From positions 14,332 to 78,331 of the forward strand of contig JBQTIP010000020.1 in the NCBI GenBank assembly GCA_052388025.1: DNA of 64,000 bases, written 5' to 3'. The position numbers and the translations under genes are program-made. This stretch comes from Actinomycetota bacterium (GTDB taxonomy: Bacteria > Actinomycetota > UBA4738 > HRBIN12). Below, piece after piece: positions 3,426 to 60,392 of this stretch; within the stretch, counting starts at the first letter, position 1; every line of letters starts with the position of its first letter. Under the pieces are notes generated by a model, which saw nothing but the letters and a program-made list of their open reading frames with translations, had not been told where the DNA came from and ran no database searches.

Positions 3426-3521
3426 CCGCCCGGTCCGTGCCTTCCCTGGCGGGGGCCGTGTAACTCCGTCGCCGACTAGGGAGTACCGTCTCAGGGTTAC
3501 TCAGCGCGAGGAGAACGAAAC

Positions 3522-4857
3522 ATGGCTTCCCTCTCCATCGAGGATCTGTCCCGCAAGGACTACGACACGGTCGTCGTCGCGGCGCCCGATGTCCAAGGGC
3601 GGCTGTTCGGCCGGCGGATCCCGGCGAGGCGGTTCCTCACGGAACCCAGCCAGCACGTCGACATCTGCGTCTGTGCGCTCGTGTGGGACATCGCCGAATA
3701 CCCGGGCTTCAAGATTCCGTTCGCCGGCGCCCACACGGGCTGGCAGGATTTCTTCCTCGCGCCGGACCTCTCCACCCTCCGGCCGTATCCGGGCGTCGAG
3801 GGCACAGCGATCTGCATCGCCGACATCCACGACGAGACGGGCGAGCTGCTGGAGATCGCGCCGCGCACGATGCTCCGGCGGCAGGTCGAGCGCGCGGCCG
3901 GTCTCGGCTACGACGCCGTTATGGCCTCGGAGCTCGAGTTCTACCTGTTCCATGGTGACCTGCGCACGGCCCGCCTGAACCGCTTCCGCGACCTCGAGCC
4001 CACCACGCTCGTCCGCTCCGACTACAGCATCGTCGGGCAGGCCGTCCAGGAGCCGTTCATCCGCCGCGTTCGGAACGAGATGGACGCGGCCGGCATCCCG
4101 ATCTGGGCGTGCCAGGCGGAGTACGGCCTCGGCCAGTGGGAGGTGAACCTCGAGCACGCCCACCCGATCGAGATGGCCGACCGCCAGGTGATCTACAAGT
4201 CCGGAGTCAAGGAGATGGCGCTCCAGTCGGACCTCGCCTGCACGTTCATGGCGCGCCCGAACGACGACATGGGCTCGTCGGGCCACTTCCACGTCTCGCT
4301 CTGGCAGGACGGCGAGCCCGTGTTCGCCGAGCCCGGCGCGCGGCTCTCCGCCGTTGCGAAGGGCTTCCTCGCCGGGCTGATGAAGCACCTCGACGAGACC
4401 GCGCTGTTCTTCGCGCCGTACGTGAACTCCTACAAGCGCCACCTCACAGAGGACTTCGGCGGCGGCATCAACGGGTGGGGGCTTCGACAACCGCACGATC
4501 GCGTTCCGCGTCGTCGGGCACGGCGGCTCGCTGCGCGTCGAGCACCGCTACCCCGGCGCCGACGCGAACCCGTACCTCGCCGCGGCCGCGATCCTGGCCG
4601 CGGGGCTCGACGGCATCGAGCGCTCGCTCGACCCGGGCCCTCCGTTCGTCGGCAACGCCTACGAGGACCCGGAGCTGCCCCGCACGCCCGAGTCGCTGCT
4701 GGATGCGCTTAGCGCCTTCGAGGCATCGGCGTTCGTCGCCGAGACCTTCGGGAAGGAGGTGGTCGAGCACTACGGGGCGCACGCCCGCGGGGAGTGGGCG
4801 GGCTACCTCCGCGCCGTTACCGACTGGGAGGTCCTGCGCGCCTTCGAGCAAGCGTGA
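3522..4857 (+). pseudogene. Glutamine synthetase-like gamma-glutamyl-amine ligase (GlnA3/PuuA/IpuC-like), interrupted by a +1 G insertion
   Basis: ATG 3522 with RBS AGGAGAacgaaac. GS catalytic-domain sequence runs through ...FGGGINGW, then the frame breaks at the G5 run 4476-4480; the protein resumes in the -1 frame (GFDNRTIAFRVVGHGGSLRVEHRYPGADANPYLAAAAILAAGLDGIE...) and ends with TGA at 4855-4857. Confidence 0.7.
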
Positions 4858-4941
4858 CCGAAGGGATCGAACGCCGCCGGTTGCCCGGAAGGTCGTTCCG
4901 GAGCAACATAGCTCCGTCCCGCTCGCTATCGGAGGAACGAC

Positions 4942-6183
4942 GTGCTCACAAGCGAGATCGATCTCGCGAATCCCGACGGCTACGTCGAGCGGATCCCATA
5001 CGAGTGGTTCGACTACCTGCGCCAGGAGCAGCCCGTGTACTGGCACGAGGAGCCGACGCCGAACCACGGTTTCTGGGCGGTCACCCGCTACGACGACCTT
5101 GTCGCGGTCCACATGGACTGGCGGACGTACTCCTCGGAGCTCGGCGCCGTATCGCTCGAGGAGCTCGACGAGGAACAGCTCCAGATCCGCAAGACGATGT
5201 TGGAGACCGATCCGCCCCGGCACCGCGAGATGCGCAACGTCTGCAACAAGAAGCTTTCGGCCCGCGCCGTCGGCAGGTACGAGGAGTTCATCCGCGGCGT
5301 GGCCCGAGACGTGCTCGACCGGGCGCTGCCAATGGGCGAGCTCGACTTCGTCCAGGAGATCTCCAGGGAGCTCCCGATCCGGTTCCTCTGCGCGATCCTC
5401 AAGGTGCCCCAGGAGGACGCCACGATGCTGATCGATTGGGGCGACCAGATGATCGGCAACCAGGACCCGGACTTCTCGAGGGCCGTCGTCGACCAGGTGG
5501 ACACGGAGGAGTTTCGCTACCTGCCGTTCCGCTCGCCTGCGGCCCTCGAGGCTTTCGAGTACGCCGACCGCCAGCGCGACCTCCGGCTTGAGGAGCCGAC
5601 CGACGACGTCATCGCCGCGCTCACGGTCGCCCAGTCCGAGGGGATCCTGACCGAGCACGAGTTCCACACGTACTTCACGCTCTTGATGATCGCGGGCAAC
5701 GAGACGACTCGGCACACGATCTCCCACGGGATCCTCGCGCTGATGGAGCACCCCGATCAGATGGAGCGACTGCGGAACGACACTTCGCTCATGCCGACGG
5801 CCGTCGAGGAGATGCTCCGGTGGGCCACGCCTGTCCTGCACTTCCGGCGCACGGCGTCGTGTGACACCGAGCTCCGCGGAACGAAGATCAGGAAGGGCGA
5901 CAAGATCGTCACCTGGTACATCTCGGCGAACCGCGATGAAGCGGTGTTCCCGGGCCCCTACCGGTTCGATATCTCGCGCTCGCCGAACGAGCACGTTACG
6001 TTCGGCCCCGGCGGCCCGCACTTCTGCCTTGGGGCGCACCTCGCGAGGCTCGAGACCCGGATCCTGTTCGAAGAGCTGCTCCCCAGGCTGAAGTCGATCG
6101 AGCTCACCGGACCGGTCCAGCGGATGCGCTCCAACTTCGTGAACGGCATCAAGCATATGCCCGTCAAGGTTCAGCTAGTCTGA
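4942..6183 (+). CDS. Cytochrome P450 monooxygenase
   Basis: Heme loop FGPGGPHFCLGAHLAR, I-helix AGNETT, EEMLRW (ExxR); 413 aa; GTG start with RBS GGAGGAacgac. Confidence 0.9.
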   Translation: MLTSEIDLANPDGYVERIPYEWFDYLRQEQPVYWHEEPTPNHGFWAVTRYDDLVAVHMDWRTYSSELGAVSLEELDEEQLQIRKTMLETDPPRHREMRNVCNKKLSARAVGRYEEFIRGVARDVLDRALPMGELDFVQEISRELPIRFLCAILKVPQEDATMLIDWGDQMIGNQDPDFSRAVVDQVDTEEFRYLPFRSPAALEAFEYADRQRDLRLEEPTDDVIAALTVAQSEGILTEHEFHTYFTLLMIAGNETTRHTISHGILALMEHPDQMERLRNDTSLMPTAVEEMLRWATPVLHFRRTASCDTELRGTKIRKGDKIVTWYISANRDEAVFPGPYRFDISRSPNEHVTFGPGGPHFCLGAHLARLETRILFEELLPRLKSIELTGPVQRMRSNFVNGIKHMPVKVQLV

Positions 6184-6194
6184 ACCAGACTAGC
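6174..6194. terminator. CTAG-rich palindromic hairpin (gCTAGTCTG-aac-CAGACTAGc) overlapping the P450 stop codon; candidate bidirectional terminator between convergent genes
   Basis: 9-bp perfect stem with a 3-nt loop; TGA of the P450 gene at 6181-6183 lies inside the left arm; related copies at 26977-26997 and 52299-52321. Confidence 0.45.
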
Positions 6195-6220
6195 GTTAGC
6201 TCACCGGAACCCCGGGCCCT

Positions 6221-7708
6221 TCAGCTCTTAGCAGCCAGACGGTTGCCGACCTCGCGAGAGACGTCGATGAGCGCGAGAACGTCGTCGTCCGTCGTGCGGT
6301 AGTTCACGAAGCACGGGCGCAGGTACACCTTGTCGTCGATCAGCGCCGAGGCGATGTAGACCCGTCCATCCTTCATCAGCTCCTGCGCCAACCGGTGGTT
6401 GTGCGCGTTCAGGTCTTCGACTCCCTCGGGCACGTGTCGGAACGGCACGATCGAGAGCACCGGCGGGCCGAGCGGCTCCAAGTCGTCGTACTGCCGGACC
6501 TCCCGGTACAGCAGCTCCGCCTCGTCGAGGTTCCGCTGGATCGCCGCGCGGAACGCAGGCGCGCCGTGTGCCCGGAACGCAAGCCAGAACTTGAGGGCCC
6601 GGAAGGGCCGCGAGTACTCCAACGTGATATCGACCGCGTGCAGCTCGTGCCGCTGGTGAGGCAGGTACCCCTCCTCGTGCTTGAAGGCGGCCTCGAGCTG
6701 CTCCCGACGCTTGACCAGCACCACGCCGCACGCCTTCGGCAGATACAGCCACTTGTGCGCGTCCACGGAGCACGAGTCGGCCCTCTCGAGCCCGGTGAAC
6801 AGGTGCGCCTTCGACGGGACCGCCGCCGCCGGCAGCCCGTACGCGCCGTCAACGTGGAGCCAGACTCCTCGCTTCTCGCACACTTCGGCGAGCGGTCCGA
6901 TCGGGTCGACCGCTCCGGTCAACGTCGTCCCGGCCGTCGCCACGACGGCGATGGGCACCACCCCCTCCGCCCGGTCCCGGTCGATCGCCTCCGCGACAGC
7001 CTCCGGCCGCACGCCCCGGTCCCGGCCGATCGGCAGCGCCCGAACGTTCGCCGCCCCGATGCCGAGTAGCTCGGCGGCGCGGATGACCGAGTAGTGCACC
7101 TCCTCCGAGCAGTACAGGGCGACGCGCCGGCCCACGAGCCCCTCCGTCCTGCTCCCCGGAAGCGCGTGCTCGCGCGCCGAGGCGAGCACCGTCGTGTTGC
7201 TGACCGTTCCACCGCTGGTGAACGCGCCGCTCCCCGCCGGGAAGCCGATGAACTCGGCCGCCCACCGGACGGCCTGCTGCTCGATCTCCGTCGCCGCGGC
7301 CGCGTAGACCGCGAGGTTCGCGTCATAGCAGGCGGCGAGCGCGTCGGCGATCGCGCCGATCTCCAAGCCCGACGATCCGATGAACGCGAAGTACCGCGGC
7401 CGGGGCTGGGCGATTGTCTCGTCGAGGATCCGGGCGGCGTCCTCGAGAACCTCGAAGACCGGAGCCGGTTCCTCCGGCAGCTCCGTCCGAAGCAGCGCTC
7501 GCACGCGCTCGTCGAGCGGCGGCTCCTCCGGCCGGAAGCGGTCGAAGCTCCGCCAGGCCTGCTCGATCAGCTCCGCCGCGCGGGCGAGCGCCTCTTCCCT
7601 CGGCGCGTCGAGTCGGAGAGGGCGCTCGCCCCAGATCCTGTGCGTGTGTTCCCCGTCCGTGCCCGGCTCAACTCCCCGGCATCGGCGCTGGCCGCGCGAC
7701 CTCCTCAC
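6221..7708 (-). CDS. Group II PLP-dependent amino-acid decarboxylase (aromatic-L-amino-acid / tyrosine / diaminobutyrate decarboxylase family)
   Basis: PLP-lysine motif SVDAHKWLYLPKACG and the GSSG/TSGGT decarboxylase fold pattern. Most likely start is the in-frame GTG at 7708 (about 495 aa), overlapping the upstream permease by 40 nt; the ORF-track start at 7786 is less likely. Confidence 0.8.
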   Translation of the reverse strand: MRRSRGQRRCRGVEPGTDGEHTHRIWGERPLRLDAPREEALARAAELIEQAWRSFDRFRPEEPPLDERVRALLRTELPEEPAPVFEVLEDAARILDETIAQPRPRYFAFIGSSGLEIGAIADALAACYDANLAVYAAAATEIEQQAVRWAAEFIGFPAGSGAFTSGGTVSNTTVLASAREHALPGSRTEGLVGRRVALYCSEEVHYSVIRAAELLGIGAANVRALPIGRDRGVRPEAVAEAIDRDRAEGVVPIAVVATAGTTLTGAVDPIGPLAEVCEKRGVWLHVDGAYGLPAAAVPSKAHLFTGLERADSCSVDAHKWLYLPKACGVVLVKRREQLEAAFKHEEGYLPHQRHELHAVDITLEYSRPFRALKFWLAFRAHGAPAFRAAIQRNLDEAELLYREVRQYDDLEPLGPPVLSIVPFRHVPEGVEDLNAHNHRLAQELMKDGRVYIASALIDDKVYLRPCFVNYRTTDDDVLALIDVSREVGNRLAAKS

Positions 7709-9161
7709 CGGACCCGACCGCGCCGGCCGCCTGGGCGGACAGACGGAACTTGCCCCGGCCGACCAGCGCCAACAGGATGACCACACCGATCACCGCCCAG
7801 CCCAGCAGGAACCAGTACACCGTGTTGAACGGCGAGGGGACCTTGTAGACGCTCGCGAAGATGGCTCCCGCTTGGATGAGGAATCCGACGGCGCCCGCAA
7901 CGACCAAGGAGCCGCTGCTGACCTTGCCCCACAATCCTCTGAAGGCCGCCAGGGCAACCGCCGCATACACCACAGCGAGCGTGAGCCCGCCGTATCCAGC
8001 CTCCCATAGGAATAGCGGGAAGTACTCTGGTCCCCCGCCGGTGTCGAGTACTCCGTGCGCGAGGCGGACCCAGGCGATCTCGGCCACGGCGATCCCCACG
8101 ACCAGCACGATCGACACGACCGGCGTGCCGTAGCGCGGCGAAACCTTCGCCAGCGCGCCCGGGATCCTCCGGTCCCTTGCCAGGGCGAAGATCAGCCGGC
8201 TGGCCGCCACAGACGCGCCGATCCCGACGGCCGCGATATCCAGGAGCAGAATGATGTTCATCAGGTCGAACAGGAAGTTCGATCCGAAGCCGCCATCCGC
8301 GGCCGGAAGCGCCAGGACCAGCACCGGCGCCCCGCTGCCGGCCCACGCCTTCGCGTCGAGCCCGAACCCGATGGCCTCCGCGTACGAGGCCACGAGGAAG
8401 TACACGGTGACGACGGCGATCGACAGGAGCACGGCTCGGGGAACTGTTCGCTTCGGGTTGGGGGTCTCCTCGGAGAGGTTCGCTGCCGACTCGAACCCTA
8501 CGAACAGCAGGATGGCGTAGAGCACGCCGTAGAACATGTTGCCGAAGCCCCCGGCCTCGCCCGGGTTGAAGGGCTCGATGCTGTTCCCGCCGTGTCCGCC
8601 CTTCACGATGATGTAGAGGAGGAAGATCGTGACGACGCTCGCGGAGAAGAGCACGAGCGCGAGCTGCGCGCGGGTCGAGATCCGGACGCCGAAGTACAGG
8701 ACGCAGAACAGGATCCCCGTGTAGACCAGGTCGAGGACCCAGTACGGGATGTTGATGTTGTAGGCCTGGCTCAGGAAGTCGGCCGTGAGCCCGCCGATCA
8801 GGAGCGGGATCGCCACGGCGAGGACGATGAGCCCGCCCGTGTATACCCACCCGAAGACGAACCCCACCCGCTCGCCGACGCCGGCGGTGATGTAGTCGTA
8901 CAACGCCCCGCAGGCGTGGATCCTCTTCGCGTACTCCGCGATGATCCAGCCGAGCGCCGCCACCCCGATGGCTGCGATGAGGATGGCGATGGGAGTGGCT
9001 ACACCCGCGCCCTTCCCGGCGTTGTTGGCGCCCACGACGAGCGACAGCAACAGGATCGCCCCGAACACTGGGCCCATGAACCCCACGGTCTGGGCGACGA
9101 CGTCGATGAACGAGAGTTTCCCTTCGCCCAGCTTCTCGTATTCAACCTGCTCGATGGCCAT
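7668..9161 (-). CDS. APC-family amino-acid/polyamine permease
   Basis: 497 aa with about 12 predicted TM segments and APC signature composition (GxG-rich helices, FGWVYTGG); translationally coupled to the downstream decarboxylase, which is the classic precursor/product antiport operon layout. Confidence 0.85.
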   Translation of the reverse strand: MAIEQVEYEKLGEGKLSFIDVVAQTVGFMGPVFGAILLLSLVVGANNAGKGAGVATPIAILIAAIGVAALGWIIAEYAKRIHACGALYDYITAGVGERVGFVFGWVYTGGLIVLAVAIPLLIGGLTADFLSQAYNINIPYWVLDLVYTGILFCVLYFGVRISTRAQLALVLFSASVVTIFLLYIIVKGGHGGNSIEPFNPGEAGGFGNMFYGVLYAILLFVGFESAANLSEETPNPKRTVPRAVLLSIAVVTVYFLVASYAEAIGFGLDAKAWAGSGAPVLVLALPAADGGFGSNFLFDLMNIILLLDIAAVGIGASVAASRLIFALARDRRIPGALAKVSPRYGTPVVSIVLVVGIAVAEIAWVRLAHGVLDTGGGPEYFPLFLWEAGYGGLTLAVVYAAVALAAFRGLWGKVSSGSLVVAGAVGFLIQAGAIFASVYKVPSPFNTVYWFLLGWAVIGVVILLALVGRGKFRLSAQAAGAVGSGEEVARPAPMPGS

Positions 9162-9256
9162 ACTCGCCCCTTTCCATTTGACCGGGCCGATGCAGCGCCC
9201 CGCGACGCCCGAATGCTAGGCGATGCTCTTTATCCGAGTCCAATTGGTCGGCGCAG

Positions 9257-10066
9257 TCAGCCAGAGAGCTCCTCCAGGAAGGTCAGAAGCGCAGCATTGA
9301 AGGCATCCGGCTCCTCGAGGAACGGGCAGTGGCTGGAGCGGTCGAAGATCTGGAGCCTGGAGTCCGGCAGGACCCCGGCCATCCACTTTCCGGCCTCGGG
9401 GCTCGTCGCCTTGTCGTCGCCCCCGAACAGGACGAGCGTCGGGATCTTGATCTCGGGGAGAAACGGGCGATAGTCCTGGAAGGTCTGGTTCACCAGGATC
9501 GAAGTGCCGATGACCGGTGGGACCTTCGTGATCTCCGCGACGAGCAGCGCCGTCATCTCGGGCGAGGGCTCGTGCAGCATGAGGCCGGCAAACCCCTCGG
9601 CCAGGGAGGGCAGATCCATCTGGATGTGCTCGACCGTCTCGCCCAACGCCTCCAGGGTGAACAGCCCGAACGGGTATCCGTCGCTCCACGCGAAGTCCGA
9701 CGGCGGCTGGTCCACGATCACGAGCCCGGCGACGTCGTCCTGGCCGAACTCCTTGAGGTATTCGTAGGCGACCATCGCCCCCATCGACCAGCCGACCAGG
9801 ACGGGCCGCTCCACGCCGATCGCCTCGAACAGCGCCCGCAGATCCCTAGCGTAGTTCGAGACCGTGTGCCCGGTCTGGGCCCTCTCGGAATCACCGTGCC
9901 CCCGGAGGTCCGGCACGACGACGCGGAATCCGCGGGAGAAGAACTCCAGCTGCCGGTCGAAGAACCGCCCGCTGCACATCACGCCGTGGATGAAGACGAT
10001 CGGCCTTCCCTCGCCGCGGTCCCGAACGTTCAGCGTGACGCCGTTAACGGTCACTCGGTCACCCAT
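9257..10066 (-). CDS. Alpha/beta-fold hydrolase
   Basis: HGxxxxxxxF oxyanion region (FIHGVMCSGRFF), nucleophile elbow GWSMGA, C-terminal SSHCP histidine; ATG at 10066 (270 aa). Confidence 0.8.
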   Translation of the reverse strand: MGDRVTVNGVTLNVRDRGEGRPIVFIHGVMCSGRFFDRQLEFFSRGFRVVVPDLRGHGDSERAQTGHTVSNYARDLRALFEAIGVERPVLVGWSMGAMVAYEYLKEFGQDDVAGLVIVDQPPSDFAWSDGYPFGLFTLEALGETVEHIQMDLPSLAEGFAGLMLHEPSPEMTALLVAEITKVPPVIGTSILVNQTFQDYRPFLPEIKIPTLVLFGGDDKATSPEAGKWMAGVLPDSRLQIFDRSSHCPFLEEPDAFNAALLTFLEELSG

Positions 10067-10083
10067 GGCCGCGCTTTCTCCCC

Positions 10084-10962
10084 TCAAGCCGCCCACCCCC
10101 CCTCGGGCCGCTCGAACCACACGTGGACCTGGCCGGTGCCGACCGAGGCCTCGTAGTCGGAGAACTGTTCCCCCGGCGCGGAGCACGCCGCCCCCCCGAG
10201 CGCGCCGATCATGATGAGATAGTGCCCGAACTTGCCCTCCGGGCCGAACTTCTTGTACTCCGGCATCCAGTCGATCAGTCCTGCGTGGTCGCCCGCCCGC
10301 AGGAGCTCGAGCACGTGCTCGTCGGCGGCGCGAGCCTCCGGCGAGTGGATGTTCTCGAGGCTCGAGGACTCGTTGCCGCGCAGCTCACGGAACGACAGGA
10401 ACTTGTGCGTTAGCCCGCCGGAGGCGAGCAGCACGACGCGGCGGTCGATCTCCGCGATCGCGTTCCTGATGAGCTCCCCCAGGAGCAGGAAGTCCTCCGT
10501 CTGCCCGCACTGGTTGATGCCGACCGAGACCCACCGCTCGCCGCCGTTCAGGTAGGTCCAGATGTTGACGGTGCCGTAGAAGATCGGCAGGTACGGATCG
10601 TCGGAGGCGAGCACCCACGTGTCGTCACGGCCGGCCGCCTGCTTCTCCAGGGCGAAGGCGAGCTCGGGGTCCCCGGGCATGTCGTAGGGGATCTGCCGCA
10701 TCCCACGCGGCAGCTCGTGCGAGGTGAACTTCCCGCTGCGGCGCTCGTGCGCCGTGATGATGTGCTCGAACGTGACCTCCCAGTGCGTGTCGAAGACCAC
10801 GATGGTGTCGGGCCGCAGCCGGTCGAGTACCTCCGACCTGAGGCGCCGCAGCCCGGGCACCAGGCTGATCTCCTTGCCCTCGTTGATCTCGAGCCTGATC
10901 GGCTCGGGCAGCATGATGGTCGGCACGTGGGAAACGAGGCCGGCCCCGGCGATCTCACCCAT
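10084..10962 (-). CDS. Class III extradiol ring-cleavage dioxygenase, LigB/HpaD family catalytic subunit
   Basis: 292 aa; LigB-family layout with conserved His residues (HVPTIM, FDTHWE, GGLTHKF); sits between an aldehyde dehydrogenase and a hydrolase, a meta-cleavage arrangement. Confidence 0.7.
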   Translation of the reverse strand: MGEIAGAGLVSHVPTIMLPEPIRLEINEGKEISLVPGLRRLRSEVLDRLRPDTIVVFDTHWEVTFEHIITAHERRSGKFTSHELPRGMRQIPYDMPGDPELAFALEKQAAGRDDTWVLASDDPYLPIFYGTVNIWTYLNGGERWVSVGINQCGQTEDFLLLGELIRNAIAEIDRRVVLLASGGLTHKFLSFRELRGNESSSLENIHSPEARAADEHVLELLRAGDHAGLIDWMPEYKKFGPEGKFGHYLIMIGALGGAACSAPGEQFSDYEASVGTGQVHVWFERPEGGWAA

Positions 10963-10977
10963 TGGCAGCTCCTTTGC

Positions 10978-12435
10978 TCACGTCGTCCACGGTGCGCTGC
11001 AGACGTTCTTGACGTCCGCGTAGAAGTCGAAGCTCCGCCTTCCACCTTCGCGGCCGATCCCCGAGTCCCGGGCGCCGCCGAACGGCGCTCGAAGGTCCCT
11101 GACGAAGAAAGAGTTCACCCAGACCGTCCCCGCTACGACGCGAGCCGAGACGCGCTCGGCCCGCTCCGGGTCGCCCGTGTAGACGATGGCGGCGAGCCCG
11201 TAGTCGGTCTGATTCGCCATCTCGACGCCCTCGGCCTCGTCGACGAAGCGCTGCAGCGTGAGAACCGGACCGAAGACCTCCTGGGTGAGGATCTCCGAGC
11301 CGGGCGCAGCGTCCACGAACAGCGTCGGCCGATAGTAGAGCCCGCCGAGCTCCTCGTTCGGGCCGCCGCCGAGGACGGCCTTCGCCCCGTCCTCCTTGGC
11401 GCGCTGCACGAACCCGTTGACCCGCTCGAAGTGCTCGGGTGTGATCTGCGGCCCGATGTCGGTCGAGTCGAGGCGGGGGTCGCCCTGGCGGATCGCGGAG
11501 GCCTTCTCAAGGAACCGGTCCAGGAACGTGTCGTACACGTCCTGTTGCACCAGCAGCCGCGTGCCCGCGAGACACACCTGGCCGGCGTTGTCGTACTGGT
11601 TCACGGCCTGGTCTACCGCGGCGTCGAGGTCGGCGTCGGCGAAGATCAGGAACGGCGACTTGCCGCCGAGCTCGAGCGACACGGGGGTGAGGTTCTTCGC
11701 AGCGGCGGCGCCGACTAGGCGGCCGGTGACCACGGAGCCGGTGAAGGCGATCCGATCCACGCCGGTGTGGGCCACGAGCGCCGCACCTGCCTCCTCACCG
11801 ATCCCCTGCACAACGTTGAGGACGCCGTCGGGGAGCCCGGCCGCGTGCGCGATGTCGGCGAGCATGGATGCGGTGAGCGGCGCCCACTCCGGAGGCTTCA
11901 GCACGACGGTGTCGCCGGCCGCGAGCGCGGGGGCGAGCCTCCAGGTCGCGAGCATCAGCGGCGCGTTCCACGGGGTGATGACCACGGCCACGCCGGCCGG
12001 CTCCCACCGGACGCGGTTCACGTGCTCTCGGATCTCGAAGTCATCCTCGTGCAGCGCCGCCAGCTGATCGGCGAAGAAGTGGAAGTTGTGCGCGACCCGG
12101 GGCATGACGCTGTTTCGCATCGAGCGAAGCAGGGAGCCGTTGTCGGTCGTCTCCACCACGGCCAGCTCGTTCACCCGCTGCTCGATGCCCTCCCCGATCG
12201 CGTGGAGGATGCGGGCTCGCTGGTCCGGCGCCGTGGCCGCCCAGCCGGGGAACGCGGCTCTGGCGGCAGCCACCGACGCTTCGGCCTCGCGCCCGCCGCC
12301 TCGCGCAACCATCGCGAGCAGCTCGCGGTCGATCGGTGAGTGGTCGAGGAACATGTCCGAGGAGGGGACGCGCGAGCCCCCGATCCAGTGATCGGCCGAG
12401 ACCCTGATGCCCTCGATCGTCGAGACGTTCGCCAT
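10978..12435 (-). CDS. NAD(P)-dependent aldehyde dehydrogenase (HpaE / 2-hydroxymuconic-semialdehyde dehydrogenase-like)
   Basis: ALDH signatures LELGGKSP (glutamate site) and catalytic Cys in QVCLAGTR; GxTxxG region FTGSVVTG; 485 aa. Confidence 0.9.
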   Translation of the reverse strand: MANVSTIEGIRVSADHWIGGSRVPSSDMFLDHSPIDRELLAMVARGGGREAEASVAAARAAFPGWAATAPDQRARILHAIGEGIEQRVNELAVVETTDNGSLLRSMRNSVMPRVAHNFHFFADQLAALHEDDFEIREHVNRVRWEPAGVAVVITPWNAPLMLATWRLAPALAAGDTVVLKPPEWAPLTASMLADIAHAAGLPDGVLNVVQGIGEEAGAALVAHTGVDRIAFTGSVVTGRLVGAAAAKNLTPVSLELGGKSPFLIFADADLDAAVDQAVNQYDNAGQVCLAGTRLLVQQDVYDTFLDRFLEKASAIRQGDPRLDSTDIGPQITPEHFERVNGFVQRAKEDGAKAVLGGGPNEELGGLYYRPTLFVDAAPGSEILTQEVFGPVLTLQRFVDEAEGVEMANQTDYGLAAIVYTGDPERAERVSARVVAGTVWVNSFFVRDLRAPFGGARDSGIGREGGRRSFDFYADVKNVCSAPWTT

Positions 12436-12484
12436 CGGCCTGCCAGCCCCAGCCGAATCCTACGCCGGGCCGCGCCTCGAGCGC

Positions 12485-13408
12485 CTAGCCGACCGGCGTG
12501 AGCCAGTCGAGGTACTTCTCGATCTCGCCCTTCGTGGCCCCGAAGAACGCCCCCTGGATCTCCTTGGTGATCGGGCCGCGCGTGCCCTCGCCCACCGTCC
12601 GGTCGTCGACCTCGCGGATCGGTGTGACCTCGGCCGCCGTCCCGGTGAAGAAGCACTCATCGGCGTTATAGAGGTCGGTACGCACGAGGTCGGCCTCGCG
12701 GACCTCGTACCCCAGGTCTCGCCCGATCGTGATCACCGACCCGCGGGTGATGCCGTCCAGGCAGCCCGCGGAGATCGGCGGGGTGAACAGGACGCCGTCG
12801 CGGACGATGAAGATGTTCTCGCCCGAGCCGTCGGTCACGTGGCCCGCCTGGTTCAGCATGATGGCTTCGTCGTAGCCGGCGTGGATGCTCTCGATCTTCG
12901 CCAGCACCCCGTTGATGTACTGACCCGTGGCCTTGGCCGAGGATGGAAGCGAGTTCTGGTCGTTGCGCTTCCAGGACGAGATCTTCACCCGGACGCCGGC
13001 CTCCAGGGCCCCCTCCCCCAGGTAGGCGCCCCAGGGCCAGACCGCGATCGTCACGTCGACCGGCGCCTGAAGGGGGTTCACCCCCATCTCGCCGTATCCC
13101 CGCAGGACGAGCGGTCGGATGTAGCAGGCCGAGAGACCGTTCGCCTTGATGGTCTCCTTGATCGACTCCCCGAGCGCCTCGAGAGAGTAGGGGATCTCCA
13201 TGTGGTAGAGCTTGGCGGAGCGCAGCAGTCGCTTGAGGTGCCCCTCGAGGTGCCACACGGCCGGACCGTTCTTCGTCTCGTAGCAGCGGATGCCCTCGAA
13301 CACGCCGCTGCCGTAGTGGACCGAGTGAGACAGCACATGGATCCTGGCGTCGTCCCAGGGGACGAGCTTCCCGTTCATCCAGATCTTCTCGACGGGCGTG
13401 ATGGGCAC
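12485..13408 (-). CDS. ilvE: Branched-chain amino-acid aminotransferase (class IV PLP)
   Basis: N-terminus IWMNGKLVPWDDARIHVLSHSVHYGSGVFEGIRCY and EVTPIREVDDRTVGEG are typical IlvE; about 307 aa from GTG 13408. The 608-aa track ORF is an upstream over-extension. Confidence 0.85.
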   Translation of the reverse strand: MPITPVEKIWMNGKLVPWDDARIHVLSHSVHYGSGVFEGIRCYETKNGPAVWHLEGHLKRLLRSAKLYHMEIPYSLEALGESIKETIKANGLSACYIRPLVLRGYGEMGVNPLQAPVDVTIAVWPWGAYLGEGALEAGVRVKISSWKRNDQNSLPSSAKATGQYINGVLAKIESIHAGYDEAIMLNQAGHVTDGSGENIFIVRDGVLFTPPISAGCLDGITRGSVITIGRDLGYEVREADLVRTDLYNADECFFTGTAAEVTPIREVDDRTVGEGTRGPITKEIQGAFFGATKGEIEKYLDWLTPVG

Positions 13409-13537
13409 CGGGGCCTCCCTTCGCGGCCCGAGGTGCGGGCCTGCTTCGGCGGTTTCGGGTACGACGCGAACAGGATACCGGCTGCGTGGGGCTCGCCGGG
13501 GCCTCCGGCTGGACTTGCGAGGAGCCCTCCCAATAGA

Positions 13538-14969
13538 GTGCGCCTCGTGACCCCCGCCGGGCGCTCGCGCTCCACGGCGCCGTCGAAGCGCGTGATCATC
13601 ATCGGAGCCGGCATCGCGGGGCTGGTCGCGGGCTTCGAGCTGCTCCGCCGGGGACACGAGCCGCTCGTCCTGGAGGCGCAGAACCGGGTGGGCGGCCGCA
13701 TCTACACGCTTCGGGACTTCGCGCCCGGGCTGTACGCGGAGGCCGGGGCAATGCGCATCCCGCGCGCGCACGAGCTCACGCTCGAGTACTGCCGGTTGTT
13801 CGGTCTGGAGCTGCGACCGTTCGTGATGGGCAATCCCAAGGGATTGGTCTACGTCGGCGGCGTCCGCATGAGCGCGGAGGAGGCGGATGCGCGCCCGGAG
13901 CGGCTGCCCTTCGCCCTCGCCGAGCACGAGGCCGGCCGCAACGCCGACCACCTGTGGCAGGAGGCCATCGCCGACATCCGCGAGCTGCTGGAGCGGGACG
14001 GCGACGCGGCCTGGGACGAGATCGTCCGGCGCTACGACCAGTACTCGCTGTACGAGTTCCTGAAGGTCAAGGGGTTCTCCGAGGGCGCCATCGAGTACTA
14101 CGCGGTCATGAACTTCGTCGAGGCCGACATGAACAACGCCGTCGTGGAGGTGCTGCGGGAGGACCTGGGAGGCGCATTCGAGGACATGCAGGAGATCGTC
14201 GGCGGCATGGACCGGCTGCCGAACGCCTTCTTCGAGCGCCTCCAGGGCAACGTCCGGCTGGGCGCCCAGGTCCACGCGATCGACCAGGACGAGCGCTCCG
14301 TCACGGTGCACGTGAAGACGGAGGCCTCGCGCTACTCCGTGACCGGGGAATACGCGATCTGCACGCTTCCCTTCCCCGTGCTCCGCTCCGTCGAGACGAT
14401 CGCGCCGTTCTCACGCGAGAAGCAGCGGGCCATCCGGCAGCTCAACTACCCACGCCTCGACGAAGGTTCTGTTCCAGGTCCGCCACCGGAGGTGGGAGAC
14501 CGAGGACGGGATCTTCGGCGGCGCGTCCGTCACCGACCTGCCGATCCGGCGGATGAACTACCCGACGCCCGACCTCACCAACGAGCGCGGGGTGCTTCTC
14601 GCTTCCTACACCTGGGGACAGGATGCGCTCCAGTGGGGTGCGATGGACGACGAGACGCGCCTCGAGGAGGCGCTCGACGACGTGTCGCGGATCCACCCGT
14701 GGATCCGCGAGGAGTACGAGGTGGGGGCATCGCACGCGTGGTACGGGGACCGCTGGGCTCGGGGAGCCTTCGCGCTCTTCGCCCCGGAGCAGCAGACGGC
14801 ACTCCAGGAAGCGATCGTGAAGCCCGAGGGCCGGATCCACTTCGCGGGCGAGCACTGCTCCCTGTACCACGCCTGGATCCATGGGGCGTTGGAATCGGGG
14901 ATCAGGGCGGCTCGAGAGATCCATGAGACCCCACCGGCCCCGGCCCCGATCCGGGCGGAACGACTCTAG
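13538..14969 (+). pseudogene. Flavin-containing amine oxidase (monoamine/putrescine oxidase or L-amino-acid oxidase family), interrupted by a frameshift
   Basis: FAD dinucleotide motif RVIIIGAGIAGLVAGFELLRRGHEPLVLEAQNRVGGRIYT. The frame is lost after ...AIRQLNY at about 14448-14458 (C-rich run); the protein continues in the +1 frame (STKVLFQVRHRRWETEDGIFGGASVTDLPIRRMNYPTP...HFAGEHCSLYHAWIHGALESG), ending with TAG at 14967-14969. Confidence 0.75.
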
Positions 14970-15754
14970 GGCAGGTCGTACGCCCGCCAGAGTATCGGGT
15001 ACTCCCGATCGATCAGCTCGTCCAGTCCCCCGAACCGCTCAACGGCCCAGGGTCGGAGCGACGCGACCGCCAGGCGCCGGGCCTCCTCGTCGACCCGCCA
15101 CGTCCAGGAGTGGAGGCCCTGAACGATCTGATCGAGGAAGGCGCCGACGGTGAGGTCGCCTTTCGCGAAGACCACGGGGAGCTCCCGGAGGCGGGCGCCG
15201 TGAGCCAACATCGCCCGCCCGAGAGCCTCCAGGTTCCTCCAGTGCAGACCGACCGGGGCCGCGAGCTCGCCGAGCTCCTCCTCCAGCCGGGAGAGGATGT
15301 CGGCGAACGGCTCCGTCATCAGCCCCTGGTTGATCAGAACCACGCCGCCGGGGCGAGCGACGCGGACGAGTTCTGCCACGGCCCGCTCCCAGTCCGGGAT
15401 CAGTTGGAGCACATGCCGGACCACCGCCCCCCCGAAGGCGCCGTCGTGGAACGGCAGAGCTGTGGCGTCTCCCAGGACCAGCGGGAAGGGGCGATGCCCG
15501 GCCTTCTCGACCAGTTTGGCCATCATCGCTATGGAGAGGTCCACACCGACCATGGCCACGCCGGCCTCGTACAGCGGCAGCGCGATCTGCCCGGTGCCGA
15601 CGCCGACGTCGACGGACGGGCCCCGTCCCTCCAGCTCGGCCAGGAGCAGGCCGATCACGCGGCGGTGGGCCTCCGGAGACGTCGGCCGCGTCCGGTCGTA
15701 GTACTCGGCGGCTCGGTCGAAGCTGAGCGAACCCGAACTCGACCCGCCGGTCAC
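14966..15754 (-). CDS. Class I SAM-dependent methyltransferase
   Basis: Motif I VDVGVGTGQIALPL, motif II VVLINQG; 262 aa; its stop codon overlaps the amine oxidase stop within the palindrome CTAG (14966-14969). Confidence 0.75.
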   Translation of the reverse strand: MTGGSSSGSLSFDRAAEYYDRTRPTSPEAHRRVIGLLLAELEGRGPSVDVGVGTGQIALPLYEAGVAMVGVDLSIAMMAKLVEKAGHRPFPLVLGDATALPFHDGAFGGAVVRHVLQLIPDWERAVAELVRVARPGGVVLINQGLMTEPFADILSRLEEELGELAAPVGLHWRNLEALGRAMLAHGARLRELPVVFAKGDLTVGAFLDQIVQGLHSWTWRVDEEARRLAVASLRPWAVERFGGLDELIDREYPILWRAYDLP

Positions 15755-15764
15755 GCGAGAAACC

Positions 15765-16913
15765 TCACGACCTCGGAATGTTCTTGCTCGGGTCCACGAA
15801 CGGGAGTGCCGCTACGGTGATGAGCACCGGTCCCGCGGGCGAGGCGGCCTCCAGCCGTGTCCCGGCCTCCGCGAGGCCGATCGGCACCCAGGCATAGCCG
15901 ATATTCCGGTCCAGGCGCGGTGACCACGTCCCCGCCGTGAGACACCCGATCTCCTCACCGTTGTCCTGCACGGGCCAGAAGTCAGAGAGCGCGCCCTCAG
16001 CCGTCATCGGCTCGCCGCCGATGTCCACACCGACGAGCTTGCGCTGCACGCCTTTCGCAGCAATGCGCGTCAGGGCCTCCTTGCCGATGTAGTCGGCTTC
16101 CTGGGGCTCGACGAGACGCTCGAATCCGGTCACCTCGAAGGGGGTGTTCTCCATCGTGATGTCCGAGCCGTAGTTGAAGATCCCGGCCTCGATGCGCCGA
16201 GCCTCCGAGGGCGCGATCGCGCGGATCCCGAACGGCTTGCCGGCCTCCATGACCCGCTCCCAGAGATCGTCACCTCGGCTGCCGTCACGGAGGTAGAGCT
16301 CGTAGCCGACCTCGCCTGTCCAGCCGGTCCGGCTCACGATCAGCGGGATGTCGTAAGGGGGCTCGTCACACCAGTAGTAGCGCAGGCCGGCGATCCCCTC
16401 CCCGAACAGGGCCACCATCACATCGGTCGATCGCGGCCCCTGGACCTGCAATGGCGACACGTCGGGCTGGTCGATGTCGATGTCCATGCCCGCGCAAGCC
16501 GCGACGCCTTTCGCGTAGAGCGCCGCGTCGCTATCGGCGAGCGCCAGCCAGAAGTGGCTCTCGCCGAGCCGAAGGAGTACCGGGTCGTTCACGATGCCGC
16601 CGCGCCTGGCGATGAGCGGTGCGTACTTGCACTGCCCCACCCGGCAGGTCGTGAGATCCCGGCACGTCAGCATGTTCGTGAAGTCGAACGCGTCAGGGCC
16701 GGTGATCTCCACGATCCGCTCCACGGCGACATCCCAGACCGTGACGTCGTTGAGCAGCGCCCAGTACTCGGTAACGGGGTCGTCGTAGAGCGTCGGGAGC
16801 AGCATGTGGTTGTAGAGGCCCCAGCTCTTGCACCCGTACCGCTTCGTCGCGTCGAAGAAGGGCGACTTCCGGTACCAGGGGGCGATGTAGAACGTGAACG
16901 TCTCCTGCGTCAC
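15765..16913 (-). CDS. Aminomethyltransferase (GcvT/DmdA family, folate-dependent) protein
   Basis: 382 aa; GcvT-fold composition with glycine-cleavage T-protein C-terminal barrel; co-transcribed with the methyltransferase (10-nt gap). Confidence 0.65.
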   Translation of the reverse strand: MTQETFTFYIAPWYRKSPFFDATKRYGCKSWGLYNHMLLPTLYDDPVTEYWALLNDVTVWDVAVERIVEITGPDAFDFTNMLTCRDLTTCRVGQCKYAPLIARRGGIVNDPVLLRLGESHFWLALADSDAALYAKGVAACAGMDIDIDQPDVSPLQVQGPRSTDVMVALFGEGIAGLRYYWCDEPPYDIPLIVSRTGWTGEVGYELYLRDGSRGDDLWERVMEAGKPFGIRAIAPSEARRIEAGIFNYGSDITMENTPFEVTGFERLVEPQEADYIGKEALTRIAAKGVQRKLVGVDIGGEPMTAEGALSDFWPVQDNGEEIGCLTAGTWSPRLDRNIGYAWVPIGLAEAGTRLEAASPAGPVLITVAALPFVDPSKNIPRS

Positions 16914-16947
16914 GGCCGCGGTCCTCCTTGGCGGTTGGGAGCGAACG

Positions 16948-18204
16948 CTACCCGACGGAGGTGGTTCGCTGCTCGCGCACGAGCCTCCGGACGGCCGGGA
17001 TGAGCACGGCCGAGGCCACCAGGCAGCTCAGCCCTCCGATCGCGTATGCACCTCGCGCCCCGATGGCCTCCACCAGCAGCCCGCCGAACGTGAACGACGC
17101 CGCGAACGCGATCAGGACCGCGGCGTCCGAGGCGCCCATCACTCTCGCCCGTACTGCGTCCGGCGCCCGTCGCTGGACGATGCCCGTTTCGGCGACGTGC
17201 GTAAAGCCCTCCCCGATGCCGGCCGCCAGCGTGAGGACGAGCGCCGCCGCGAACCACGGAGCGATGCTGGTGAGCCCGATTCCGAGCCCGATCACGACGG
17301 TACCGAACAGCAGGCTCCATGGCTCCCGGGCCGCGTTCAGATAGCGGGCGCCCAGGAGGGAGCCCAGCGCCGCGCCGCCCCCCCACAGCGCGGTCAGCGC
17401 GCCGTACCCGGTGGAGCCGGTGCCGAAGAGGTCGGCGAGCGCGACCTCGGCGACGAGCGTGAAGCCCGCACCGAGCAGCAGCACCACCCACGCCAGGGTG
17501 ATGATCCGAAGCACCGGCTCGCGAGCGAGGAACACCACGCCCGCCCGGAGGCCTCGGTACTCGTCGCCGCCCTCCACCCTCGCCTGTGAGAAGGGTGCCC
17601 GGATGCTCCGCACGATCAGGGCGGACACCACGAACGAGACGGCGTTCAGCCCGTACACCCAGTAGCCGGCGACGCGCAGCTCTGCTGCCGTGTTGTCGCC
17701 CGCCAGGATCCCGACGAGCCCGCCCCCGAGGAGCGGGCCCACGAAGAAGCCCAGGTTCACCCCGATCGAGACCATCCCGTTCGCCCATGAGAGGTCCTCC
17801 TCCCCAATGAGGTTCGGGATGGCTGCCCGCGAGACCGGGAAGAACGGGGTCTCCACGACCGCGGTCGCGAATGCGACCACGAGCATCTGCGTCGGGGTTC
17901 GGGCGAACGCGAGGACGAGGAACCCGACGGCTCCGAGGAGGTCGGAGCCGATCAAGACCCTCCGTCGGTCCAACCGGTCCCCGAGCGCCCCGGCGAGCGG
18001 CGTGAACAGACCCGAGGCCCCGAACGTCACCAGCAGCGCGGCAGAGACCCACGTCGCCGACTCGCCGGTCCGCCGGAAGATGATGTAGGCGAGCGCCGTG
18101 AAGGCGGCTCCGCTGCCGGTGAGCGAGATGGACCGCGCGAGCGCCAGGCGGCGCACGGCGATCCGCGGCTGCGTGCGCGCCCTCGGGGTTCGTTCGGTCT
18201 TCAT
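16948..18204 (-). CDS. MFS transporter
   Basis: 418 aa, 12 predicted TM segments, MFS motif A region GALGDRLDRRRVLIGSDLL; tandem paralog of the next gene. Confidence 0.8.
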   Translation of the reverse strand: MKTERTPRARTQPRIAVRRLALARSISLTGSGAAFTALAYIIFRRTGESATWVSAALLVTFGASGLFTPLAGALGDRLDRRRVLIGSDLLGAVGFLVLAFARTPTQMLVVAFATAVVETPFFPVSRAAIPNLIGEEDLSWANGMVSIGVNLGFFVGPLLGGGLVGILAGDNTAAELRVAGYWVYGLNAVSFVVSALIVRSIRAPFSQARVEGGDEYRGLRAGVVFLAREPVLRIITLAWVVLLLGAGFTLVAEVALADLFGTGSTGYGALTALWGGGAALGSLLGARYLNAAREPWSLLFGTVVIGLGIGLTSIAPWFAAALVLTLAAGIGEGFTHVAETGIVQRRAPDAVRARVMGASDAAVLIAFAASFTFGGLLVEAIGARGAYAIGGLSCLVASAVLIPAVRRLVREQRTTSVG

Positions 18205-28550: not shown

Positions 28551-28553
28551 CGG

Positions 28554-28865
28554 CTAGTCGACCGCGACCTGGAGGTCGACCCCCTCCTCACGGACTTCGT
28601 AGGTCGCGACCGGCTCGGTGGCCGGCCCGTTCACGACGGCGCCGGTAGTCACGTCGAACTGGCTTCCGTGGCAGGGACACTCCACCACACCGCCGTCGAG
28701 CTCCCCTTCGGCGAGCGAGCACTGCTGGTGGGTGCAGATGTCGTCGAACGCGTAGAGCGTGCCGCCGACGTTGGCGACGGCGACGGTAAGCTCGCCGACC
28801 GGATAGGAAGCGACGTCGCCGGAAGCGACGTCGCCGGCCTCCCCGACCCTCACGAAGTCTGCCAT
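28554..28865 (-). CDS. Rieske [2Fe-2S] ferredoxin
   Basis: CTHQQC ... CPCHGSQF (CxH-n-CxxH Rieske ligands); 103 aa; 3-nt gap to the downstream reductase. Confidence 0.8.
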   Translation of the reverse strand: MADFVRVGEAGDVASGDVASYPVGELTVAVANVGGTLYAFDDICTHQQCSLAEGELDGGVVECPCHGSQFDVTTGAVVNGPATEPVATYEVREEGVDLQVAVD

Positions 28866-51199: not shown

Positions 51200-51257
51200 G
51201 GCCTCGATGCTACTCGCCTCGCCGCCGGCTCATCATCGTGGGCTACCCTCGTCCATC

Positions 51258-60382: not shown

Positions 60383-60392
60383 GGACCTGGTC

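Follow-up and report, generated by a model that had tools for sequence, protein, structure and literature searches.

Here we describe a gene cluster from an uncultured soil lineage of Actinomycetota, found in a 64,000-nt stretch of DNA (the window). Six genes in two convergent units encode a glutamine synthetase (GS)-like ligase, a cytochrome P450, a permease, a decarboxylase, an aldehyde dehydrogenase (ALDH), and an extradiol dioxygenase of the LigB superfamily. These genes appear to belong together, as judged from sequence comparisons in which the cluster is found across phyla. On balance, we favor the reading that they would break down aromatic amines or amino acids by gamma-glutamylation, P450 oxidation, and meta-cleavage of the homoprotocatechuate type.

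Because the window has a G+C content of ~70%, genes were called by third-position GC (GC3) frame analysis together with a frame-aware Viterbi pass. Families were assigned by Pfam and NCBIfam scans, with the curated equivalog cut-offs of the latter, and by sequence matches to the PDB; scores are given in bits. The six genes are as follows.

3522-4857, plus strand: GS-like ligase of the glutamyl organic-amide synthetase type, in two frames, directly 5' of the P450 gene.
4942-6183, plus strand: cytochrome P450, CYP125/124-like (Pfam p450), convergent with the decarboxylase gene.
6221-7672, minus strand: group II pyridoxal phosphate (PLP)-dependent decarboxylase, aromatic-amino-acid-decarboxylase-like (Pyridoxal_deC, 202 bits), GTG start.
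7668-9161, minus strand: APC-superfamily amino acid/amine permease (AA_permease_2 and AA_permease, ~113 bits each).
10084-10962, minus strand: LigB-superfamily (class III) extradiol dioxygenase, HpaD-like, of a separate subfamily (LigB, 95 bits).
10978-12435, minus strand: ALDH, HpaE-like, of the ring-fission semialdehyde dehydrogenase type (Aldedh, 507 bits).

On the minus strand, the genes for the branched-chain aminotransferase IlvE, ALDH, LigB, an alpha/beta hydrolase, the permease, and the decarboxylase follow one another in a tightly spaced run, which converges with the GS-P450 unit. The gaps are 15 nt between the ALDH and LigB genes, 17 nt between the LigB and hydrolase genes, and 84 nt between the GS and P450 genes, and 38 nt separate the convergent stops of the P450 and decarboxylase genes. 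The GTG start of the decarboxylase gene overlaps the permease stop (GTGA), which suggests that the two are translationally coupled. A promoter and terminator scan of positions 3000-17500 gave no match, as expected at this G+C. Within the region (3522-16913), IlvE alone passes NCBIfam equivalog cut-offs; outside it, SerA and a Ser/Thr dehydratase do so.

What ties the cluster to ring cleavage? The sole NCBIfam match of the LigB dioxygenase is HpaD_Fe (TIGR02298), at 146.5 bits against a cut-off of 316. The protein is 31.8% identical to E. coli HpaD and matches a 3,4-dihydroxyphenylacetate 2,3-dioxygenase (PDB 8iq8) at 92 bits. The metal-binding residues (two His and one Glu) and the catalytic His show no variation among the window protein, its homologs from metagenome-assembled genomes (MAGs), Streptomyces, Embleya, Novosphingobium, and Sphingobium, and E. 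coli HpaD. We found LigB homologs in 313 stretches of GTDB species-representative genomes and considered the best 80, which are 71-93% identical to the window protein and all belong to MAGs of uncultured Actinomycetota, many recovered in soil surveys. Identity is 52-55% in Streptomyces, Embleya, and Novosphingobium, and a Sphingobium homolog (43% identical) lies within a complete hpa-like cluster that includes genes for an aldolase and a hydratase. A large protein search with LigB returned close relatives only (78-93% identity) and reached no characterized enzymes.

The dehydrogenase points the same way. HpaE (TIGR02299) is its best match among 43 ALDH families, at 526 bits against a cut-off of 638, followed by the 2-hydroxymuconic semialdehyde dehydrogenase of the XylG type (454) and StyD (380). 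It is 43% identical to E. coli HpaE and 62-67% identical to the Streptomyces and Embleya copies. Its gene directly precedes that of the dioxygenase, as hpaE precedes hpaD in the E. coli hpaR/hpaGEDFHI cluster (L090). We counted synteny in 45 related loci that span 15 kb or more, and the two genes adjoin in 44 of them.

The decarboxylase is about equidistant from several aromatic-amino-acid decarboxylases. Its best PDB matches are the R. gnavus tryptophan decarboxylase (210 bits) and a DOPA decarboxylase (190 bits), and both the PLP lysine (DAHKW) and the equivalent of His192 are present. It occurs at 62-78% identity in 37 of the related loci, mostly directly after the permease gene. We also considered, and set aside, a role as an aromatic aldehyde synthase, for which no amine oxidase would be needed: the eukaryotic catalytic-loop Tyr falls within a deletion of three to four residues, but this is not diagnostic, since two true decarboxylases, R. 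gnavus tryptophan decarboxylase and DesA, share that deletion. The permease scores below all NCBIfam cut-offs, reaching only 21-25 bits with models of PotE-type antiporters (cut-offs 409-560). Its slot is filled in 39 of the 45 loci, mostly by proteins 40-55% identical to the window copy. The closest copy (68%, in locus L052) adjoins a homolog of the hydrolase (67% identical) on the opposite strand; these identities suggest that a hydrolase-permease pair may have replaced the original permease (window 7668-10066 compared with L052 and L043).

Once its frame is repaired, the GS-like protein matches Gln-synt_C at 296 bits over residues 112-437 (Pfam). All NCBIfam scores for GS and PuuA lie below their cut-offs (GS I, 197 against 429; GS III, 234 against 470; PuuA, 206 against 650), so that the protein has a GS catalytic domain outside the bona fide glutamine synthetase families. 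Its best PDB matches are 5dm3 and 11zs (~310 bits); glutamate-methylamine ligase reaches 155 bits, and PA5508 (4HPP) does not appear at E<=1e-20. The ligase shares 41-45% identity with a "type B" GS paralog found at the equivalent position in some related MAGs, and 27-35% with the GS genes that adjoin the orthologous P450 in Streptomyces, Novosphingobium, and roseobacters.

The P450 carries the heme-thiolate motif FGPGGPHFCLG, and its PDB matches are a reconstructed ancestral CYP125 (436 bits), M. tuberculosis CYP125 (~269), and CYP124 (~261). In other genomes, the conserved genes around it encode GS-like, glutamine amidotransferase (GATase), ALDH, and LigB proteins; steroid genes are not among them. 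Thirty-two of the 45 related loci carry a homolog with 70-77% identity. Orthologs in Embleya and Streptomyces canus (50-52% identity) and in Novosphingobium (42%) each adjoin a GS-family gene, with the LigB ortholog at most 12 kb away. Elsewhere in the window, 21 kb from the P450 gene, a ferredoxin reductase gene (Pyr_redox_2 plus Reductase_C) adjoins one for a Rieske-type ferredoxin (27324-28928, minus strand). The reductase is 36% identical to that of the S. canus cluster, and the two proteins could be redox partners of the P450.

The neighborhood is well conserved in the soil lineage. The usual order is GcvT-like gene, methyltransferase, IlvE, PepN, ALDH, LigB, permease, decarboxylase, and a variable stretch, followed by the P450 and GS genes on the facing strand. 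Among the 45 loci, IlvE is present in 40, PepN in 39, a MarR homolog in 38, the GcvT-like gene in 31, and a GS gene upstream of the P450 gene in 31. In relatives, the MarR gene is HpaR-like and overlaps the decarboxylase stop. Four features are particular to the window genome: the hydrolase gene, a gene for an L-amino-acid-oxidase (LAAO)-like flavoprotein, the loss of PepN between IlvE and ALDH, and the lack of the HpaR-like MarR gene. The whole 64 kb holds no homolog of MarR, FAH, ADC, PuuD/GATase, SRPBCC, PepN, or quinone oxidoreductase.

We then compared the LigB dioxygenase and the P450 with a plasmid database of 72,556 records. The best LigB homologs there (52-55% identity) come from two Embleya strains, plasmid pSLUN1 of S. 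lunaelactis, a plasmid of S. canus, and Novosphingobium sp. EMRT-2. Four of those records (the two Embleya strains, S. canus, and Novosphingobium EMRT-2) also hold the best P450 homologs, with no more than 12 kb between the two genes, a GS-family gene next to the P450 gene, and a different gene order in each. The clusters of cultured strains also carry genes for FAH, ADC-family, and MarR proteins, a second ALDH, Peptidase_C26, an APC permease, and a ferredoxin with its reductase; the gene for the second, PuuC-like ALDH overlaps that for the PuuD-like Peptidase_C26. Outside the window, the cluster has a class I GATase, a PuuD-like gamma-glutamyl hydrolase, or both. In S. lunaelactis, a tyrosine-decarboxylase-like Pyridoxal_deC gene follows the FAH gene. 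The cluster proteins, those of the window included, matched NCBIfam families as follows.

ALDH1: HpaE is the best family, 518-526 bits.
LigB: HpaD is the sole match, 127-147 bits.
FAH: C-terminal domain of HpaG, 185-212 bits.
MarR: HpaR, 49-50 bits.
ALDH2: PuuC, 568 bits.
Peptidase_C26: PuuD is the sole match, 83 bits.
ADC: MppR, 178 bits.
PLP enzyme of S. lunaelactis: tyrosine decarboxylases, 125-129 bits.

The MarR protein of these clusters is 45% identical to that of the MAGs; a single MarR family is shared by the MAG lineage and the clusters of Streptomyces and Embleya. The cluster is at its most compact in the window's own lineage, in the MAG contig L029 (JBJTYK010000117.1, 2792-12275), whose LigB is 77% identical to ours. 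Here FAH, GS, P450, class I GATase, Peptidase_C26, ALDH, LigB, and permease genes follow one another on one strand, with the ADC gene divergent. Roseobacters carry GS, GATase, and P450 triads in which the P450 is 41-45% identical to that of the window, on the megaplasmid of Ruegeria sp. TM1040 (L091, 5479-14680) and on a plasmid of Sagittula stellata E-37 (L092, 9929-13236). The Ruegeria triad lies beside paaABCD and a branched-chain aminotransferase gene, which hints that phenylethylamine may be the substrate of the triad.

Synteny in this lineage alone proves little, because it includes unrelated housekeeping genes (PepN, IlvE). The genes could instead be independent modules that are neighbors by inherited order: a GS-P450 module for an aliphatic or alicyclic amine or a lipid, an ALDH-LigB module for stand-alone catechol cleavage, and a permease-decarboxylase pair. 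This explanation fits the MAG synteny, which spans PepN, IlvE, and SerA, and the varying genes between decarboxylase and P450, as well as the CYP125/124-like character of the P450 and the roseobacter triads of GS, GATase, and P450 without a LigB gene. It does not account for the reciprocal co-occurrence of P450 and LigB in Embleya, S. canus, and Novosphingobium in shuffled orders, nor for the one-strand array of L029 with its GATase genes between P450 and ALDH, nor for the recurring MarR family. Thus, co-occurrence on plasmids, shared extra genes, and the L029 array allow function to be separated from inherited synteny, and we regard independent modules as unlikely.

How would such a pathway run? 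The permease would import an aromatic amino acid or amine, with L-3,4-dihydroxyphenylalanine (L-DOPA) or dopamine as the most economical guess and tyrosine or tyramine as the alternative. The decarboxylase would form the arylethylamine, the GS-like enzyme would gamma-glutamylate it in an ATP-dependent reaction, and the P450 would oxidize the gamma-glutamyl amide. In the variant that we prefer, the P450 would hydroxylate the carbon next to the amide nitrogen, giving an arylacetaldehyde that a second ALDH would convert to homoprotocatechuate; with L-DOPA or dopamine as substrate, no ring hydroxylase would be required. In the other variant, the P450 would hydroxylate the ring, and the resulting gamma-glutamyl catecholamine would itself be cleaved. 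Extradiol cleavage of the catechol ring by the LigB enzyme would then give a semialdehyde, which the HpaE-like ALDH would oxidize, and FAH and ADC-family enzymes, encoded outside the window, would complete the pathway. Homoprotocatechuate-type ring cleavage is a reasonable proposal because the dioxygenase, dehydrogenase, FAH, and MarR proteins score best as HpaD, HpaE, HpaG, and HpaR, respectively. We prefer oxidation next to the nitrogen because it has a precedent, discussed below; it is also compatible with the lack of a GATase gene close to the Novosphingobium cluster and in the majority of MAG loci.

Several observations weigh against this pathway. All pathway-family scores lie below the curated equivalog cut-offs, and the substrates are therefore guesses. 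The GS-like gene of the window is a divergent paralog and is frameshifted as assembled. By sequence, the nearest relatives of the P450 are sterol and lipid omega-hydroxylases, and no ferredoxin gene is adjacent to it. In some close relatives, the decarboxylase gene lies 5-8 kb from the permease gene, and the position of the Ruegeria triad beside paa genes could be coincidence. Finally, the window has no GATase/PuuD-like gene, second ALDH, FAH, ADC, or MarR gene within its 64 kb, so that only part of the proposed pathway is encoded there.

The variant with ring hydroxylation can be developed into a reading of its own, in which the HpaD-like enzyme cleaves N-gamma-glutamyl-dopamine itself. Tyramine or dopamine would be gamma-glutamylated, the P450 would complete the catechol, and the glutamyl group would prevent the amine from cyclizing onto the ring-fission aldehyde. 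HpaE-, HpaG-, and MppR-like steps would come next, and by the carbon bookkeeping of Hpa a last aldol cleavage would yield pyruvate and 4-(gamma-glutamylamino)butanal, the very substrate of PuuC, which PuuC- and PuuD-like enzymes would convert to gamma-aminobutyric acid and glutamate. A pathway of this kind would account for the joining of Puu-like and Hpa-like genes in Streptomyces, Embleya, and L029. Nevertheless, we think such protected meta-cleavage rather doubtful. The P450 may stand in for the HpaBC hydroxylase; it is CYP125/124-like, and for GS-associated P450s the precedent is oxidation next to nitrogen.

That precedent comes from the soluble P450 systems by which actinobacteria attack cyclic amines, PipA (piperidine and pyrrolidine) and MorA (morpholine). 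A gamma-glutamyl role is ascribed to the GS near these systems. Like the proposed pathway, they combine a soluble P450 with a ferredoxin and a reductase and have a GS nearby (by locus-tag numbering, two genes from the reductase). Oxidation next to the nitrogen leads to C-N cleavage (PMC9477822), and Gulosibacter overexpresses the genes of its PipA- and BioI-type P450 systems together with GS genes whose locus tags differ from theirs by two (PMC9477822). Unlike the cluster described here, the PipA and MorA systems act on alicyclic substrates and include no ring-cleavage dioxygenase or decarboxylase; their P450s are classed as homologs of PipA and MorA, and that of the window is CYP125/124-like.

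Gamma-glutamylation by GS homologs is known for aniline, naphthylamine, putrescine, and aromatic monoamines (PMC11335346, PMC6529630), the aromatic monoamines being glutamylated, reportedly, by PauA7 (PMC6529630). In the aniline (AtdA1-A5/TdnQTA1A2B) and 1-naphthylamine (NpaA1-A5) systems, a GS-like enzyme gamma-glutamylates the arylamine for an oxygenase that requires the glutamylated form, and a GAT-like gamma-glutamyl hydrolase is encoded alongside (PMC11335346). These systems resemble ours in the triad of GS-like enzyme, GATase, and oxygenase, as seen in L029, Sagittula, and Ruegeria, and in the catechol ring cleavage that follows. They differ in that their oxygenase is a Rieske dioxygenase and ours a P450, and the window has no GATase. 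In addition, the presumed substrate here is an arylethylamine made by a decarboxylase rather than an arylamine, and ring cleavage is HpaD-type. The Puu and Pau pathways (PuuA-D of E. coli, PauA1-7 of P. aeruginosa, and GlnA2-4 of Streptomyces) likewise use GS homologs to gamma-glutamylate amines at the expense of ATP, and PuuC- and PuuD-like genes occur in the cultured clusters. In contrast to Puu/Pau, a P450 takes the place of the FAD oxidase PuuB, and aromatic ring cleavage is linked to the amine steps.

The E. coli Hpa system shares the hpaE-hpaD order and the conserved metal ligands noted above. It differs in having HpaF, HpaH, HpaI, and HpaBC, none of which is part of the window cluster; related clusters have an MppR-like ADC-family protein instead. 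Homologs of HpaF, HpaH, HpaI, HpaB, and HpaX are absent from the window and from the related loci. Conversely, E. coli Hpa has none of the GS-like, P450, GATase, decarboxylase, and amino acid permease genes that this cluster joins. The component types are thus all known (Hpa meta-cleavage, Puu/Pau and Atd/Npa gamma-glutamylation, and P450 amine oxidation with a GS), and it is their combination for which we found no description. In the open-access literature, we found no account of a GS, P450, and HpaD/HpaE cluster or of bacterial catabolism of gamma-glutamyl-tyramine or -dopamine; subscription journals may differ.

The original prediction, made from the window alone, had described the region as an accessory-looking island that might be decaying. 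In that route, the decarboxylase would form an amine, a flavin monoamine oxidase in place of TynA would turn this into an aldehyde, and the ALDH would yield hydroxyphenylacetate; a P450 would take the place of HpaBC, LigB would cleave the ring, both branches of meta-cleavage would be encoded, and IlvE and a GcvT-family aminomethyltransferase with its methyltransferase would take part. To weigh it, the other five genes of the region are needed.

9257-10066, minus strand: alpha/beta-fold hydrolase, esterase/arylesterase/perhydrolase-like (Abhydrolase_1, Abhydrolase_6), between the LigB and permease genes.
12485-13408, minus strand: branched-chain aminotransferase (BCAT) IlvE, which passes NCBIfam equivalog cut-offs.
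13547-14969, plus strand: FAD-dependent LAAO-like flavoprotein (Amino_oxidase), in two frames.
14966-15754, minus strand: class I S-adenosylmethionine-dependent methyltransferase (Methyltransf_11, Methyltransf_25).
15765-16913, minus strand: GcvT-family, DmdA-like tetrahydrofolate-dependent demethylase (NCBIfam and PDB scores).

All the gene families that had been named are indeed present where they had been placed (Pfam and NCBIfam scans, GC3 frames), and the HpaD- and HpaE-like affinities and the aromatic-amino-acid-decarboxylase-like decarboxylase agree with that route. Its outline, from aromatic amino acid to catechol to ring cleavage, survives for six of the 11 genes, with the amine chemistry more likely to be glutamylation plus P450 oxidation than flavin oxidation. 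As a whole, we consider the route improbable, for reasons that differ from gene to gene.

The frame-repaired flavoprotein matches Amino_oxidase at 251 bits (residues 23-458). In the PDB, it scores 308 bits with ancestral LAAOs and 254-268 bits with snake-venom LAAOs, compared with 61-72 bits for monoamine, cyclohexylamine, and other amine oxidases. It is therefore LAAO-like rather than a monoamine oxidase, and since none of the 45 related loci holds a homolog, we regard it as an insertion specific to this genome. The hydrolase, proposed as the hydrolytic branch of meta-cleavage, scores below its NCBIfam cut-offs (PcaD is best, at 104 against 256; BphD, 51 against 462; HsaD, 44 against 400). 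Its top PDB matches are esterases, arylesterases, and non-heme haloperoxidases, and no meta-cleavage-product hydrolase of the BphD, HsaD, or MhpC type is found among its PDB matches at E<=1e-12. Only two of the 45 related loci have a homolog next to LigB, and there it is encoded on the opposite strand. The hydrolase is a genome-specific insertion between the LigB and permease genes and probably not a pathway step. The ALDH, in turn, scores best as a ring-fission semialdehyde dehydrogenase (526), ahead of the arylacetaldehyde dehydrogenase model (380).

IlvE is a true BCAT (440 against a cut-off of 279 for NF005146; 433 against 246 for TIGR01122). PepN, sometimes together with a Ser/Thr dehydratase, separates it from the ALDH gene in 39 of the 45 relatives; the window is the one case in which the two genes adjoin, with 50 nt between them. 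It is a conserved neighbor with no pathway assignment. The supposed aminomethyltransferase is DmdA-like: it scores 331 bits as a dimethylsulfoniopropionate demethylase (DmdA; cut-off 410) compared with 171 (cut-off 300) and 146 (cut-off 236) as GcvT, and in the PDB it scores 234 bits with DmdA (3tfh) and 144 with GcvT. The methyltransferase meets no NCBIfam cut-off and is syntenic in relatives at 40-54% identity. In closer relatives (L087, 475-4169; L088, 1-3620), the DmdA-like gene stands between genes for an FAD-dependent amine-oxidase-like protein (~530 aa) and a Ring_hydroxyl_A protein (317 aa). This array looks like a block for the demethylation of methylated amines or betaine, of which the window has lost both flanking genes. 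Beyond the DmdA-like gene, the minus strand of the window continues with two MFS transporters, SerA, and a class V aminotransferase. The DmdA-like gene, the methyltransferase, the two MFS transporters, and SerA are conserved neighbors with other roles, and PepN separates the IlvE, methyltransferase, and DmdA-like genes from ALDH in relatives.

As to the proposed island, neither composition nor mobility genes set the region apart. Codon-usage distance is 0.084 inside it and 0.091 outside (p = 0.71), its tetranucleotide distance falls within the range of all equal-sized windows, and its GC content is no different from the rest. The GC3 of its genes (0.89-0.95) is similar to that of flanking genes read in the correct frame. 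The 64 kb contain no tRNA gene, and no integrase or transposase was found among the scanned proteins of the region and its immediate flanks (Pfam and NCBIfam). The core genes are syntenic in 32-44 of the 45 loci, and only the hydrolase (two of 45) and the LAAO-like gene (none) are patchy. The region is a stable chromosomal neighborhood, not a horizontally acquired island. The copies on the linear plasmids of S. lunaelactis (pSLUN1, L082) and S. canus (L083) lie beside genes for an IS5-family transposase and an integrase; unlike those of the MAG lineage, the Streptomyces copies look accessory and mobile.

The feature that had been read as possible decay, frameshifts in two genes, is present in the sequence as assembled: an extra G in a run of five (4478-4482) in the GS gene, and an extra C in TACCCAC (~14450) in the flavoprotein gene. 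Removing one base at either site restores an uninterrupted, full-length domain match, and there is no other damage. A census of the 64 kb found four, possibly five, single-base homopolymer indels, spread over ~58 genes, at least two of them outside the region. One, at ~42207, lies in a large regulator-like gene (minus strand, ~41012-43585) in which one G is missing from a G run; the frames join ...ARLAEVMWDR to GRFAEAVERMDG... Another, at ~56994, is an extra T in CTCTTTG in an MFS sugar-transporter-like gene (minus strand, 56162-57851), whose N-terminal part ends ...NLPTGAL and whose C-terminal part resumes LLLLNRWIPESPRFL. The possible fifth is at a run of five G at ~51519, in a kinase-like gene with an HFDVRSD motif (plus strand, 51255-52285), and is uncertain, the N-terminal part being short. 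Since the frameshifts are spread over the whole window, assembly error is likely, rather than local decay. Many related MAGs derive from a long-read soil survey. Altogether, the flags of "island" and "decay" are artifacts of reading a single window.

Independent contigs bear on the organism, though not on the frameshifts. In the Logan assembly of SRR34758880, three contigs (L001, L093, and L094) match the window, each with one identical window protein. L093 has two mismatches in 4658 nt, holds an exact copy of the P450, and begins 26 nt past the GS frameshift site; L094 holds an exact copy of the DmdA-like protein. The near identity of L093 shows that the window's organism is present in the SRR34758880 sample. 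None of the three contigs spans a frameshift site, and exact-protein look-ups in the SRR34758880 contigs that included the truncated GS and MFS products gave no match, which is uninformative for truncated products. Further along the minus strand of the window lie, by translations read by eye, a ZnuABC-like metal ABC transporter (permease, ATPase, and binding protein) and a methylmalonyl/isobutyryl-CoA-mutase-like gene (53423-56056 and 58730-60580).

Two further explanations were considered. The locus could be biosynthetic, with LigB acting as a DOPA- or dopamine-type extradiol dioxygenase to make a seco-DOPA or betalamic-acid-like block for a pigment or secondary metabolite, and with the decarboxylase and P450 as tailoring enzymes. 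DOPA dioxygenases of the LigB family exist (PMC11926856). The decarboxylase is of the appropriate type, and the S. lunaelactis plasmid copy lies near condensation-domain and aromatase/cyclase genes. But the partners are catabolic (HpaE-, HpaG-, HpaR-, PuuC-, and PuuD-like), the Sphingobium homolog sits in an hpa-like cluster, no scaffold-forming biosynthetic genes are found in the window, and the locus is conserved as a single chromosomal copy across a soil lineage; biosynthesis is very improbable.

The permease-decarboxylase pair had also been likened to tyrDC-tyrP of enterococci and lactobacilli, and the comparison holds insofar as an APC transporter gene adjoins a group II PLP decarboxylase gene and the two appear translationally coupled. 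A decarboxylation/antiport system for acid resistance or proton-motive force, merely beside catabolic genes, is nonetheless hardly credible in this soil actinobacterium: the decarboxylase reaches 46 bits with TIGR03811 (cut-off 905), the PotE scores given above are likewise below their cut-offs, the pair is co-oriented and tightly spaced with the catabolic ALDH-LigB genes with an HpaR-like MarR gene next in relatives, and the decarboxylase gene is detached from the permease gene in close relatives.

The interest of these findings rests on the cross-phylum cluster; the window copy is incomplete and locally rearranged. Cultured carriers (S. canus NBC_00633, S. lunaelactis MM109, two Embleya strains, and Novosphingobium sp. 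EMRT-2) make the idea testable. If breakdown by gamma-glutamylation, P450 oxidation, and ring cleavage proves correct, soil bacteria of at least two phyla would need neither a copper nor a flavin amine oxidase to degrade aromatic amines and amino acids of plant or microbial origin, such as L-DOPA, dopamine, tyramine, or phenylethylamine. The P450 would be a third type of oxygenase in gamma-glutamylation-dependent amine catabolism, here coupled to HpaD-type ring cleavage, and a physiological role would be at hand for a CYP125/124-like P450 clade that always lies beside a GS homolog. It would also give a function to a conserved operon of an abundant, uncultured soil lineage of Actinomycetota.

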